A program made the translations under genes and the position numbers. Below the pieces are notes generated by a model. The model was not told the origin of the DNA, did not search any database, and worked only from the letters and a program-made list of their open reading frames with translations. Source: Reclinomonas americana ATCC 50394 (taxonomy: Eukaryota). Taken from it: a DNA stretch of 40,058 bases. This document shows, in pieces, positions 1,067 through 37,400 of this stretch (positions are counted from its first letter, which is position 1; each line of letters starts with the position of its first letter). The stretch lies in contig PS015426.1 in the NCBI GenBank assembly GCA_048213135.1, forward strand, positions 1 through 40,058. Reading direction: 5' to 3'.

Positions 1067-2360
1067 CTATTGCAGCCACTTGCGCACGTGCTCGAAGGTG
1101 AACCACGTGGTGGCCGAGGCGGGGAATGAGCGCAGTACGGCCACATGCTGCACAACATCTGTCACTGTTATGCAGCAAGAAGAGCATCACAGTCACACCC
1201 CCCTCTCACCATTCCACGAGTGAGACCACGCCATCCTTCCGTGGCCATGATGTGTCTGAAGACTTGCATCATTCCCTGCAGAGGTCGAGTGAGTGACAGG
1301 CGACATGCGGAAGAGAGCGGCGGACACCACGCAACTCCTTCGGTTCCAGGTACTTGCATTCGTGACTGCCAAGCAACATGGTGGGAAGGAGAGCGAAGAA
1401 CGAGGAGAAGAGCGCGGAAATATGGAGAGAAAAGACGGAGGACAAGCAAAGCGATCCAATCGCTCACCTTTACACTATCTATGGGGTAAACGAGCACCCA
1501 GTAGGCTGCGCACCGAGAGATGAGCAACAGGCATCGAGGGGGAGAAGAAAAGGAGGGCACATTGCGCAACTTGCTCCAGACAAGGCTCCAGCAAGCATGA
1601 AGACCAGTGATCCACCGCGGTGCTCCTCATCGTGATGCTGCTCGGTGGATATGCGCACGTACTCACAGAGTTTGAGTTGAGGCAAACAGAGTGAAGATGA
1701 AGACTGAGAACGCAACAGGCTCAGCCATCAGCTGCTGCAGCCATCTGCACACAAGCAAATATTATCATTATCAGCGGTACGAGCGGTATGGTTGCGCGAG
1801 CAGCGCAGCCGCACCCTCTATACATTTCGTAGGAACCAAACCAAAGCGCAGAACCGAAAGCCTCGCGCGCTGTAGTCGCCGACAGCCCCTGCACGTCGAA
1901 GACTGTGAATCACCGTCCTCACACGCTGGCTGCTTACAGACGCACCCTGTACAATCCGCCCATCCCTTTTTCGCGGTACAGCTGCTTCGCAAAGTCTACC
2001 GTGGATACTCGTGGACCCGTGCGCACTCTGCGCAACGTGTCAGCTTCAAACTAGTCGCGCTGATGCTACACAGCGCGACGAAACTGTAATGAGCACTTGA
2101 TCAGTTCTGCTGGCGAATACAGCGGCGACATGCACAGGCCCGTCACGGCACCGGCAGCAGCTGCATGGGGATGTAAGTGAAAGTCACGTGCAATGTTCGG
2201 CAAAAGAGAGAGAGAGACCATGTTCCGCCACGCTTAATCTCGTGACGTGACGCTCGCCAAACATGGCGGACTTGATTTGGTTGTTGGCCAAGAAGATGAT
2301 GCTGTTGAGCACGGAGGCGCCGACGAGAGGCGGCACCAGGCCTTTCCACAGTGCGAAGAA
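1067..2360 (-). CDS. Mitochondrial carrier family (SLC25) protein, carnitine/ornithine-carrier-like; 5' exon(s) missing
   Basis: Spliced exons give FFALWKGLVPPLVGAS..., SPAELIKCSLQ (PxExxK), EKGMGGLYRGLSATTARE, YPIDSVKSRMQ (PxDxxK), EGWRGLTRG and LRSFPASATTWFTFE...WLQ* (stop 1067-1069). Confidence 0.9.
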
Positions 2361-2429
2361 CTGCATAGCGGGGGGGAGGATGAGGAGAAGAGACAGGAGG
2401 AAGGAGGTTTCAATGAACGCAAGAGTCTA

Positions 2430-33679: not shown

Positions 33680-34478
33680 ACTGGTGGCCGTTGAGTGGCG
33701 CAAGGCACGTGCCTGCTCTGCAAATGATGCAATTGCCGAGCAGACTCGTCGGGGAGAAGAGGAGGAGGAAGAGGAAGGTGGAGAGAGTGTGCGGAACGAG
33801 GGCAGTGCGTGTGAGCGCGAAGGAGAGTGGTGAGAGAAAGAAGAGGAGGAAAGAGGTGGAGTGGTGGTCCTGGCGCTCTGACGGCGGAGAAACGAGTCAA
33901 AGCCGCGCATAACGGTCGGATTGTGGCCAATTGCGGAGGGTGGATTTGTGTTGGCAGGCGGTTGTGTTTTGTGTGTGTGAGGGAGAGAGAGAGAGAGTGC
34001 GTGCGTGCAAGTGCGTGTGTGGTGGAATGCTTGAGTGAAATGCTGGTTGAGGAGGGAGTGAAGATGATGAAGAGGGCGTCATTGCCAAAAATTTATTGGT
34101 TTTCTTGGATTGCGCGCGCCAGAATCTCTGAATCTGTGGCCGGCGAATAAAAGGACGGGGTCGCAACGTGGAGAGTGAGAGGGGGATGAGGTGCGTGAGA
34201 GGAGAGGGAGGTGGAAGGGGGGTCACAGAGGGGGCCGTGTGTTCAGTTGTCCGGAGAGTGCGCAAGCACGCGTTTGTTGTGTGTTTTTCCTTCGATATGT
34301 TGAGTGGTGAGTGGTGAGTGGAATCCGCGTTATTGCACCAATAGCAACAGCACGCCAAAGTGCCAACTCCAATCATCTCCAACGACACCAATCACGACTG
34401 CGGCGAGGAACGGCTTCGCTCAACGGCTAATCTGCCGTCACATTTCTTTGCTTCCCTTCCCACAAAAATGGCGTTCAC

Positions 34479-37400
34479 TCATCTCACACCGACCAGTATG
34501 TCCTCGAGCTGGCGGAGCACGTGATCGACACTGTGACCGCCGCGCACCGCAGCGTCAGAAAAATGATACGATACAGCGAACAAATCTACTACAAAGCGCC
34601 GCACCTGGTTCTCTCGTCGGCCCGCCAGCGCAGGCATTGCGCCACGATTTCGACGTAGGTAGGTGGCACCGTGTAGCCACTTGCATCGCGCGCCAGCATC
34701 TCCGGTTGTAATCTCAAGTCCAGTGACTCTGTGTGCGACGATGAGAGATGGTGGGAAACGGCATCGACAGAAAGGAGAAGGAGAAACCTGTGGACAGTCC
34801 GTGGACGACCATCATTGGTTGCATGTGGGCAAAGGGTTTTCGCAGCGTGGCCAGCTCCCACAGCACCAGCCCGAGGCACCAGACGTCGGCTGGGGGAAGG
34901 GGAGGGGAGGAGGAGGAGGGAGGANNNNNNNNNNNNNNNNNNNNACACCCACATGACGCTCTTCACTCACACTGATTGATTCATTCGCTCACCCTTCTCC
35001 CTTTTCTCTTCCCTCTCTCTCTCACCCCGTGAACGGCGGATCATAGTACAACTTCAACCCATGCTTCCCACACTGCTGCTGCACCACATCCAAAATGCGA
35101 TTGCCGCCGCAAAAGAACACCTCGTGCGGCGCGTGCGACATGACCACCTCGTGCAGCTCCGAGTCAAAGTCCGGCCGCCCCAGCGTCGGCACCACACCGC
35201 ACATGTCGAGCGCGCCGTTGCTGTCGTCAAACACGATCTTGTCGACCGAGGGATCGGTGAGGAACATGCGCACGGTGATGCCGTGCGGGAGACCGCCCTC
35301 GCGGCAAAAGATCTCCAGCGCCGAGGCGAAGAGCGAGGCCGAGCGGGTGGTGAAGAGGATGAGCACCGATTGGGGGAGGCGACCGGTGCTGCGCACGCGC
35401 TCCACCAGGTCCCACGCGACGGTGACGCCGGTGCCGGTGGCGATGAGGACTTTGGAGCATTGGGTGTCGAAGAACATGCGCTGGTAGCAGCCGCGGAAGG
35501 GGCCCCGAACACTGCGAAGGGGGGGAATGGGGAAGGGGGAAGGGGGGAAAAGGGAAATGGGAGAAGGGTGAGAGGGAGAAGGGTTGAGAGGGGAAGGGGA
35601 GAGGGAGGGAGGGGGAAGGGGAAGGGGAAGGGGAAGGGGAAGGGAAGGGGAAAAGGGAAGGGGAAGGGGAAGGGGAAGGGGAAGGAAAAGAGATTGAAAA
35701 GGGAACGAAAGAAGAAGGAAAGGGGATATAGGAAGGGGAAGATAAGGGAGGGAGGGGAAAGAGGGGAAGGAGGGGGAGGGGACGGAGGGGGAAGGAGGGG
35801 GAGGGGAAGGAGGGGGAGGGGAAGGAGGGGGAGGGGAAGGAGGGGAAGGGGAAGGGAAGGAAAGGGGGAGAAGGAGAGAGGGGAAGGACAGAAGGGAAGG
35901 AGAGAGGGACAGGAGAGAGGGGAAGAGAAAATAGGGAAGTGAAGGGAGGAAAAAGGGAAAAGAAGGGAAACATACGAGAGGCGCGACGGAAAGGGAGAGA
36001 GGGAAAAAGTGAGGGAAGGGATGAGAACACAACAAAGAGAGAATGAATGAATGAGAAGAGGCAAAGAAAGAAAGGAACGTGAAGGAAGAGCGCGTGTGTG
36101 TGTGAGAGGAGAGAATTGAGAGAAGAGGGAGTTAATCATCAACCAATTAAAGAAGATGGATGCTCACGTTAGATACCTTTCAGAGAGTACCGTTCACCAC
36201 GACCGACCTCGGGCGCCAGGTACACGAGCGTGCCGATCTGCGTCATGGTGGTGGTGGTCTCGGCGAGGCGGGCGAGGCCGTAGTCGCCAATCTTGGCCTC
36301 CCAGTCGTCGGTGATGAAGATGTTCTCGGTTTTGACGTCGCGGTGGATGCTGTTGCAGGGGGAGTGAGAAGGGACTGACACGAGAAAGAGGGAGAGAGTG
36401 AACAATACAGCGAAACATTGGCTGCGGTAATGAGTGGAGGAAGTAGAGTCCGCGCACAATGCCCCGTGCGATCTGCAGAGTGCGGTCAGTTGTCCACGGG
36501 TCGGTGGCGAGTCGATCCTGCGAGAGGCAATCTGCCAAGCTGCCGCGCTCAGCGTACTCGGTGACGAGGGCGTTCTGCAGGCGAGAGAGTGAGTGAAAGT
36601 TGACAACAGGAAAGATTCTCCGCATACCTGCTTCTCTGTCGCCACGATACCCAGGCATTTGAGCAGATTCGGATGACGGAGGGCAGACAGCACACGAACT
36701 TCGCCGGCAAAGGCTCTCATGGAGCGATCGGCCTCGGCGTCGCGCTCCGGCGATAAGCCAAGAACCCTGCGAAGAAGAAAAATGAACGACGATATTAAGA
36801 TTGCTTTCTGCGGATGAGTTGTGCATCGAAGTTGCACATCCCTTCCTTTCTCCGTCTCTCTCCTTCGGTACGAATGCAGACGATTGTTCCTCTTTCTCTC
36901 CCCTCTCTGTATTGTGCGCGTCTAGAGCAGTACATCACTCTCATGCGCACAACAGGATTCGCAGTGTTCTTCCTCTCACCCTCTCTTCCATGTTTCTCTG
37001 CTTCTACAAAGACTAGGATCTACAAATCTATTGCGTCGAATGCATCTCAGTCAGTCTCTCTCAGAGCCGGAGAGAGAGGTACAAAGAGATAAAGAGAGCA
37101 AGAGAACGCAGGCGAATAAAACAGAGAGCAGAGACCGAGCGCGTGTCATCCCTCAGTCTCTCCCCCTTTCCCGTCACACGCACCACGGCACGCGGAAACA
37201 CTTGACGGCCACATGCAGTCCATTCCAGTCGGCCAGAAACACATCACCGAATGAGCCGACGCCGATGCGCTCGAGAGCCTCCACCTCCGACGGCGGAATG
37301 ACCTTGATGCGCGAGTCTTCTGGTCCGTATCGGCTGTCCATCTCGGGATCTGGCGCAGCAATGTACTGCAACCCGCTGGTATGAGTGCCACACCCTCTTT

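Follow-up and report, generated by a model that had tools for sequence, protein, structure and literature searches.

A class of 5′ splice sites displaced by one base in about a quarter of the introns modelled in a nuclear window of Reclinomonas americana

Shifted-register 5′ splice sites in human genes were reportedly described by Roca and Krainer in 2009 (Nat Struct Mol Biol), and a bulge register of human 5′ splice sites is said to have been described by Roca et al. in 2012 (Genes Dev). In the shifted register the recogniser binds one base downstream while the cut is still made at GU, and of 201,541 human donor sites 1.5% use any validated non-canonical register, with 54–68 sites in the bulge +2/+3 register (PMC4856993); a non-canonical register of U6 has additionally been proposed for one human tandem donor (PMC11162779). 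Shifted and bulged U1 registers have so far concerned a small share of human sites, plus disease mutations, and the extent to which the spliceosome separates the place of U1 binding from the place of cutting is still argued. Here we analyse a 40,058-nucleotide (nt) stretch of nuclear DNA from Reclinomonas americana ATCC 50394 (contig PS015426.1; hereafter the window), in which 21 of 80 introns begin with GTT[GTA][CA]G and the whole donor profile of these introns, flanks included, is displaced by one base relative to that of the ordinary ones. The host splicing machinery probably reads its donors routinely in two registers.

The window is intron-rich, has a G+C content of about 55–60% and contains eight N runs. 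A Pfam scan of stop-to-stop frames identified six genes with a family match, encoding a mitochondrial carrier, a WD40/THOC3-like protein, TRM13, a GH63/MGH1-like hydrolase, an NHL-repeat protein and a protein kinase; Rfam at gathering thresholds gave zero matches in the window. Nine gene models were drawn by hand, aided by a finder that rewarded GT[GA]NG and GTT-type donors equally. They contain 80 GT–AG introns, and a script confirmed GT and AG at the ends of 80 of 80 introns and zero internal stops after intron removal. All counts reported here refer to this one 40-kb window and its hand-curated models, and the support is statistical and homology-based.

Fifty of the 80 donors carry G at +5 and are mostly GTGCG (22) or GTGAG (12) (class I), and 21 have the form GTT[GTA][CA]G (class II; GTTGCG 14, GTTTCG 5, GTTACG 1 and GTTGAG 1). 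The original prediction had listed 19 such hexamers and put their share, by hand count, at roughly a quarter of introns: all 19 were found at the coordinate and on the strand listed and are used as GT donors in the nine stop-free models, which hold two more (GTTGCG at minus 37424 and plus 27268) and place the share at 26%, in line with that estimate. The comparison proposed with the prediction, a product of single-position frequencies, yields 2.0 expected class II sites among 80 donors against 21 seen, and 0.6 expected GTTGCG donors against 14 seen. In addition, G at +4 is confined to donors with T at +3 (16 of 30 versus 0 of 50, p = 5e-9). Together, the restriction of +4 G to +3 T and the excess over 2.0 expected sites argue for two registers rather than one loose consensus.

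The hexamer GTTGCG occurs 42 times in the window, compared with 23.1 ± 4.5 in dinucleotide shuffles, 0 of 100 of which reach 42, and this excess matches its number of donors. Among the 18 sense-strand copies inside gene models, 14 are donors, 3 lie in introns and 1 lies in an exon. This last copy, at 30465–30470 on the minus strand, is the sole sense-strand GTTGCG in a curated exon; the next acceptor would give a stop, and it appears to be passed over. GTTTCG shows no overall enrichment in the window (17 versus 21.1 expected).

The flanking positions, which do not define the classes, carry the strongest evidence for a displacement by one base. Ordinary donors had been said to follow an exonic G and the GTT-type donors an A, T or C, and an anticorrelation with G at −1 had been anticipated; both hold, with G at −1 in 44 of 50 class I sites and A, T or C before 18 of 21 class II sites, leaving G in 3 of 21 (Fisher p = 4e-9). 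At −1 of class II, G is no commoner than the exonic G content of 0.31 (p = 0.15) and A is enriched (11 of 21, p = 6e-4), so that this position resembles −2 of class I. On the intron side, class II +7 (T12 C6 G2 A1) mirrors class I +6 (T28 C14 A6 G2), and class II +4 (G15 T5 A1) mirrors class I +3 (G39 T6 A4 C1), +3 of class II being T in 21 of 21 by definition. When class II flanks were scored with class I column frequencies at seven non-defining columns, the shifted alignment scored 63 bits above the unshifted one, with −1 contributing 42 and +7 contributing 20; per site it is the better one in 15 of 21 class II donors and in 9 of 50 class I donors in a leave-one-out control. What the shifted-register reading predicts at non-defining positions (loss of −1 G, the +7 and +4 columns and the 63 bits) is thus what the window contains.

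The use of each hexamer on the sense strand points the same way. GGTGCG serves as donor in 20 of 30 copies, GTTGCG in 14 of 18, GGTTCG in 3 of 3 and GTTTCG in 5 of 10, against 2 of 45 for [ACT]GTGCG. As the last of these is rarely used, the first G is needed in both forms, either as the last exon base or as the first intron base. Aligned on their core, both classes are thus best described, as judged from these patterns, as one element G-(G/T)-TGCG that is cut at whichever GT it contains.

In their remaining signals the two classes are alike. A branch-like CT[CGA]A[CT] is found in the last 40 nt of 19 of 21 class II and 33 of 50 class I introns, CAG forms the acceptor in 19 of 21 and 48 of 50, respectively, and intron lengths are similar, which argues that the same U2-type machinery handles both. 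U12-type introns carry an [AG]TATCCTT donor and a TCCTTAAC-like branch site; we rejected them as candidates, as 0 of 80 donors begin GTATCC or ATATCC and the branch and acceptor signals are those of ordinary introns. A mobile or introner-like intron family was likewise rejected: blastn-short comparisons among introns of up to 250 nt returned only low-complexity matches of 11–25 nt.

How firmly the individual junctions are fixed varies from gene to gene (Table 1). The reading frame demands removal of 18 of the 21 class II introns, 8 of which hold an in-frame stop and 10 of which shift the frame. For 11 of the 21 donors no in-phase GT lies within −30 to +45, and the alternatives that remain are never of GT[GA]NG type; nearby GTs as the true donors were therefore rejected, there being no canonical in-phase alternative at any of the 21 sites. 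TRM13 permits a finer comparison. Every in-frame GT/GC..AG choice within ±45 nt (74 alternatives) was scored with a profile built on 70 homologues, and the curated junction came out best for three GTTGCG introns, with none better among 6, 12 and 19 alternatives, respectively. For the GTTTCG intron at 8810 the donor is constant in the two best choices and the acceptor is ambiguous by 9 nt. Retention of the intron at 10014 lowers the score from 337.6 to 318.9 bits, a loss of 18.7. The motifs on which the original prediction had relied, CPLDGN|HT and GRM|CKS, are as described, with a gapless alignment over these joints and over NYI|NPEFF, and the Pfam TRM13 profile continues across 9701 (positions 2–150 and 151–245). 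A GC–AG parse of the form GTT|GCG was rejected, since it scores 329.4, 331.5 and 330.8 bits against 337.6, that is 6–8 bits lower in three of three TRM13 cases, and since it is impossible for GTTTCG and GTTACG donors.

Beyond TRM13, the kinase exons fall on consecutive Pkinase positions (72|73, 116 to 120 across 36416, and 177|178|179), and the PI|IHRD joint at 36416 stands as first described, with the profile at 75–116 and 120–175 on either side. In the carrier gene, exons beside two ordinary donors meet at profile positions 65|66 and 67|69, and the KCSL-Q joint was borne out by eye, the GTT junctions completing the carrier signature. At 30266, reading through the donor meets a stop inside the intron directly after the donor, as had been claimed. 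Taken together, homology for the four TRM13 donors and kinase 36416, and reading frame for the rest, indicate that the cut falls at the GT of class II sites, which are true donors in the conserved genes.

Table 1. Class II introns and other long introns of the window, with the gene and the basis of each class II call (class II introns are named by hexamer and position of its first base)
Feature	Interval	Strand	Gene and basis
GTTGCG 1335	1276–1335	minus	Carrier; joins QVPGTEG to GMMQVF; next exon matches Mito_carr profile 47–67; frame not demanding
GTTGCG 1570	1506–1570	minus	Carrier; frame needs removal; zero in-phase GT alternatives
GTTGCG 1716	1638–1716	minus	Carrier; in-frame stop inside; sole in-phase alternative GTCTTC
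GTTTCG 2084	2028–2084	minus	Carrier; in-frame stop inside; joint completes signature PAELIKCSL-Q-V
GTTTCG 5064	4998–5064	minus	WD40/THOC3-like; frame-needed; zero in-phase alternatives; next exon has WD40 Pfam match
GTTGCG 5226	5155–5226	minus	WD40 gene; in frame, stop-free; weakest among conserved-gene cases
GTTGCG 8522	8522–8744	plus	TRM13; top of 7 junction choices (70-homologue profile)
GTTTCG 8810	8810–8876	plus	TRM13; donor in two best choices; frame-needed
GTTGCG 9701	9701–9759	plus	TRM13; top of 13 choices; gapless CHHRCDVTNYI|NPEFF
GTTGCG 10014	10014–10073	plus	TRM13; top of 20 choices
GTTACG 14971	14913–14971	minus	Proline-rich secreted-type gene; frame-needed; zero in-phase alternatives; without homology support
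GTTGCG 19357	19291–19357	minus	NHL-repeat gene, C-terminal half; frame-needed; zero in-phase alternatives
GTTGCG 20080	20011–20080	minus	NHL gene; frame-needed; one in-phase alternative GTCCTG; neighbouring GTGAGA out of phase
GTTGCG 21514	21450–21514	minus	NHL gene; stop inside; zero alternatives
GTTGCG 21759	21579–21759	minus	NHL gene; stop inside; acceptor hand-chosen: nearer one (21662) gives stop, 21579 holds 1056-residue NHL frame open
GTTGCG 22574	22505–22574	minus	NHL repeat region; stop inside; joint LAKDAKF-K-YPQKICHDP fits pattern of other blades
GTTTCG 24833	24773–24833	minus	NHL gene, first intron
GTTGCG 27268	27268–27337	plus	IQ-motif gene; beyond first list; frame-needed; zero in-phase alternatives
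GTTGAG 30266	29815–30266	minus	Coiled-coil gene; read-through gives immediate stop; also in 400–925-nt set
GTTTCG 36416	36350–36416	minus	Protein kinase; Pkinase profile joint; zero in-phase alternatives
GTTGCG 37424	37366–37424	minus	Kinase gene, before glycine loop; beyond first list; frame-needed; in-phase GTTCGA 6 nt upstream
Long intron (400–925-nt set)	12858–13746	plus	
Long intron (400–925-nt set)	20605–21315	minus	
Long intron (400–925-nt set)	23366–24169	minus	
Long intron (400–925-nt set)	31412–31983	minus	
Long intron (400–925-nt set)	37719–38643	minus	

The best-supported reading, which we hold to be somewhat probable, is that one U1 small nuclear RNA (snRNA) would bind class II sites in a shifted register, probably with an altered 5′ end. 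The introns would be ordinary U2-type GT–AG introns of the nuclear genome, and their 5′ splice sites would be recognised as one element G-(G/T)-U-(G/U/A)-(C/A)-G, mostly GGUGCG or GUUGCG. In the common form, G|GUGCG, the first G would be the last exon base and the intron would start at the second G; in the other, |GUUGCG, the second letter is U, so that the sole GU is found one base further upstream and the first G would open the intron. Initial recognition, for which the 5′ end of U1 is the likeliest agent, would involve the same binding relative to the UGCG core in both forms; counted from the cut site, this corresponds to Roca and Krainer's +1 shifted register. U6, U5 and Prp8, acting later, would still cut at GU and tolerate the extra U at +3. 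This scheme supposes U1 to be the reader, one U1 to suffice for both forms and U6 to tolerate the extra base. It also supposes a reader unlike the textbook U1 end, for instance with G for pseudouridine at U1 position 5; the preference of the core for C over A before the conserved G, together with poor predicted U1 pairing, leads us to infer such a difference. In its stronger form, which we regard as possible and rather doubtful, the shifted register would be a second standard mark for at least a fifth of introns: U1 would carry G at position 5, with or without a second U1 with A at position 8, G-N-UGCG would be bound in one register, and the catalytic core would pick its GU.

Predicted pairing bears directly on this scheme. 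Each site was folded against the 11-nt U1 5′ end as printed in PMC4856993, an assumed sequence that may not be that of the host. Class I sites pair with this usual end at a mean of −6.8 kcal/mol, in the canonical register in 46 of 50. Single substitutions in the U1 end were also compared: G at position 5 best parts all donors from decoys (predicted area under the receiver operating characteristic curve, AUC, 0.82), and with this hypothetical G, C4 of U1 is predicted to pair with +6 in 18 of 21 class II sites. In class II the base before the conserved G is C and not A in 20 of 21 sites, opposite to what selection by pairing with U1 position 5 would favour. Among class II sites, good pairing with the usual end is predicted for GTTGAG at 30266 alone, in the shifted register and at −5.2 kcal/mol.

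Several observations weigh against a single U1 in a shifted register. Class II sites as a whole are predicted to pair with the usual U1 end at a mean of only −1.5 kcal/mol and in no consistent register, worse than the 1,331 unused GTs (−2.4 kcal/mol; AUC 0.38), so that an altered U1 or another reader is implied and the favoured explanation needs a changed reader. This poor predicted pairing lends indirect support to the unusual U1/U6 pairing or variant snRNA that the original prediction had proposed. Class II is also no plain shifted copy of class I: A precedes the conserved G in 14 of 50 class I sites and in 1 of 21 class II sites, and TCG cores occur in 3 of 50 and 5 of 21, respectively. Nine of the 80 donors belong to neither class. 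Three class II introns (1335, 5226 and 10014) are in frame and stop-free and hence not demanded by frame, although the one at 10014 is rescued by TRM13 homology, and the weakest case, 24833, has an eight-codon ATG first exon as its only basis. The curator knew of the GTT pattern while drawing the models, and a finder that gave equal reward to control patterns picked 0–6 ‘donors’ for them against 11 for class II; a few class II calls in unconserved genes could thus be artefacts, and the finder alone proves little. Finally, class II is uneven across genes, with 18 of 46 introns in the six Pfam-family genes against 3 of 34 in the other three, which are lineage-specific (p = 0.002); within genes or regions with a Pfam family the share is 14 of 34. 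Intron age, expression level or curation could each account for this clustering.

Other explanations would distribute these facts differently. The same displaced consensus at +4 to +7 would arise if U1 paired normally with G+1 and U+2, one U of +2/+3 looped out and pairing resumed at +4. Such a bulge would retain the G+1:C8 and U+2:A7 pairs, its +2/+3 register has been validated in human cells (PMC4856993), the three class II sites with a −1 G are predicted to fold with this bulge if U1 has G at position 5, and the donors at 25232, 25757 and 26746, which also have −1 G, read like single-base bulges elsewhere in the site. With a bulge, however, exon −1 still faces C9 of U1, so that −1 G should be favoured, the more so in weak sites, whereas it is found in 3 of 21 against 44 of 50 and A is enriched; the −1 column by itself backs the shift with 42 bits, and we consider the bulge unlikely. 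We think it just as unlikely that a second, dedicated snRNA, a variant U1 matching GUUGCG (for example with A for C at position 8), reads class II while the main U1 reads GGUGCG. Substitution C8A is the best single change for parting class II from the 1,331 unused GTs (predicted AUC 0.81), with the double change U5G+C8A every one of the 21 class II sites is predicted to pair in a single register (−8.2 kcal/mol), expressed variant U1 genes are known in humans (PMC3561869, PMC10870369), and class II is concentrated in some genes. Yet a dedicated snRNA requires an extra gene where a single shifted U1 requires none, and a single reader accounts for the first G being equally indispensable in GGTGCG and GTTGCG.

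A reader other than U1 is more improbable still. If there were little or no U1 pairing, later readers (the U6 ACAGAGA box, U5 or Prp8) or a protein could need CG or AG at a flexible +4/+5 or +5/+6, which would suit class II pairing worse than decoys with the usual U1 end, the CG at +5/+6 in 20 of 21 class II sites, the flexible U6 registers proposed for a human tandem donor (PMC11162779) and the nine donors without a U1-like pattern. An intron-side reader of flexible distance nevertheless predicts an unchanged exon side, and it leaves unexplained why −1 G is near-obligatory for GTGCG (2 of 45 without it) yet dispensable for GTTGCG. We find it very improbable, lastly, that the class is an artefact of boundaries mis-drawn at another GT, or at GTT|GCG as GC–AG, or is the tail of one degenerate consensus. 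Hand-made, pattern-aware models, the 0–6 control picks at equal reward, the in-frame GC of GTTGCG at +4/+5, three introns without a frame demand and the lack of window enrichment for GTTTCG would all fit an artefact. Set against these are the 6–8 bits lost by the GC parse in three TRM13 cases, the lack of a canonical in-phase alternative at 21 sites, the count of 21 against 2.0 expected, the near-doubling of GTTGCG over shuffles in an excess that equals the number of donors, and the shifts at −1 and +7, which cannot arise from boundary choice.

Among the donors outside both classes, five are pyrimidine-rich after GT (GTCTCT at 2218, GTCCTT at 30958, GTTTCT at 34787 and GTATCT at 36176 on the minus strand, and GTTCTT at 26527 on the plus strand); all five follow an exonic G and lack G at +5 or +6. 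The donor at 36176 is backed by the kinase profile, and that at 26527 has an in-phase alternative, GTCAGT, 21 nt downstream. Three more, GTAACG at 25232, GTGCTG at 25757 and GTACTG at 26746 on the plus strand, follow an exonic G, look like GTACG or GTGCG plus one inner base and may represent registers with a one-base bulge elsewhere in the site; each of them lies within the unconserved IQ-motif gene. At 27684–27746 (plus), a 63-nt in-frame, stop-free stretch opens with GTATTGCG and has a CTCAC motif and CAG at its end. It is intron-like and not required by frame, and the model keeps it within the exon.

Many introns measure 52–111 nt, and a separate set spans 400–925 nt (Table 1). Except for 23366–24169, these long introns consist mostly of short C/T-rich repeats, the sense strand being the one rich in pyrimidines; such sequence also fills the intergenic spacers, with strand skews that track gene orientation. 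Intron phases over the whole window are 26/31/23. The coiled-coil gene at 28376–33679 (minus), which encodes 1,127 residues with a C-terminal membrane anchor, has phase 1 in 13 of 15 introns (binomial p = 3e-5). A 1,287-nt ‘intron’ of the kinase gene at 34890–36176 (minus), whose flanking exons join at Pkinase 177|178|179, contains an N gap at 34925–34944 and, on the same strand at 35022–35511, an exon-like frame of 163 codons with a stop at its end. By eye this frame has the look of a ferredoxin-reductase-type NAD-binding domain, and it has no Pfam match at an E value of 0.01; for this interval the choice lies between a nested gene and a scaffolding error.

Upstream of the first visible exon of the carrier gene, about 2400–3540 on the minus strand, lies a series of similar units of about 180–190 nt in which the same short words recur. 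The series ends at a 225-N gap, and the first third of the carrier gene is outside the window sequence. The starts of the NHL gene (24858, minus) and the IQ-motif gene (25171, plus) are about 310 nt apart on opposite strands and likely share a promoter region, and the first introns of the two genes have a 19-nt CA-rich stretch in common.

Gene finders without a donor model missed the homology-proven TRM13 and carrier structures, single-class runs failed on conserved genes too, and a self-trained intron-composition term drifted onto the C/T-rich spacers. Blind scans that ranked about 4,200 GT sites on the coding potential of their flanks and the strength of the acceptor placed 25 and 4 of the 80 curated donors in the top 200 and are uninformative either way. 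In a search of 5.8 billion proteins the closest TRM13 relatives were 35–48% identical. For a 47-residue carrier exon, a word search of the protein collection returned zero proteins and a full HMMER search just two unrelated long ones; a search with a WD40 exon returned generic multi-WD40 proteins only, of no use for junction tests; and for a TRM13 exon against metagenome contigs, 0 of 115 pattern matches were confirmed. The junctions of the carrier, WD40 and NHL genes consequently rest on per-exon Pfam matches, motifs seen by eye and the reading frame. From the TRM13 and carrier searches, the host organism and its close kin seem to be absent from the searched protein collection, and gene models of the host are probably not yet public.

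A genome with about one in four introns displaced in this manner would be a natural experiment on how far U1 binding and cutting can come apart, supplying hundreds of matched site pairs, GGUGCG versus GUUGCG, and would reveal whether adaptation took place in U1, in U6 or in both. Among eukaryotes the 5′ end of U1 hardly varies, and it would be changed here if the stronger form of the single-U1 reading is true. A gene finder that relies on one donor matrix will mis-model one in four of the introns in such a genome.

A literature search found no description of a GTTGCG-type or GTGCGT-consensus donor class in any organism, supplementary site lists being outside its scope, and on shifted or bulged registers it found only human and tunicate work. 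Like the human shifted register, class II sites have GU followed by U at +3, a consensus one position downstream and G+1 in place of the exonic −1 G. They differ from it in frequency (21 of 80 introns here, a rarity in humans), in a core of GCG or UCG where the human one is AAGU, and in negligible predicted pairing with the usual U1 end; the register here is also known from sequence alone. With the human bulge +2/+3 register they share the intron-side letters, GUU and a displaced consensus, and a one-base irregularity of the helix between 5′ splice site and U1, but the bulge predicts a retained −1 G, found here in 3 of 21. No human variant U1 is known to handle as much as a quarter of introns. 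The resemblance to them (PMC3561869, PMC10870369) would lie in a second donor specificity within one spliceosome type. As with GC–AG and U12-type introns, a minority donor class stands beside GT–AG introns of U2 type, unlike GC–AG introns in that homology rejects the GC parse and unlike U12-type introns in lacking the [AG]TATCCTT donor. This window thus presents what is probably the known shifted register, raised from a rarity to about a quarter of introns; its core differs, and its reader probably does too.

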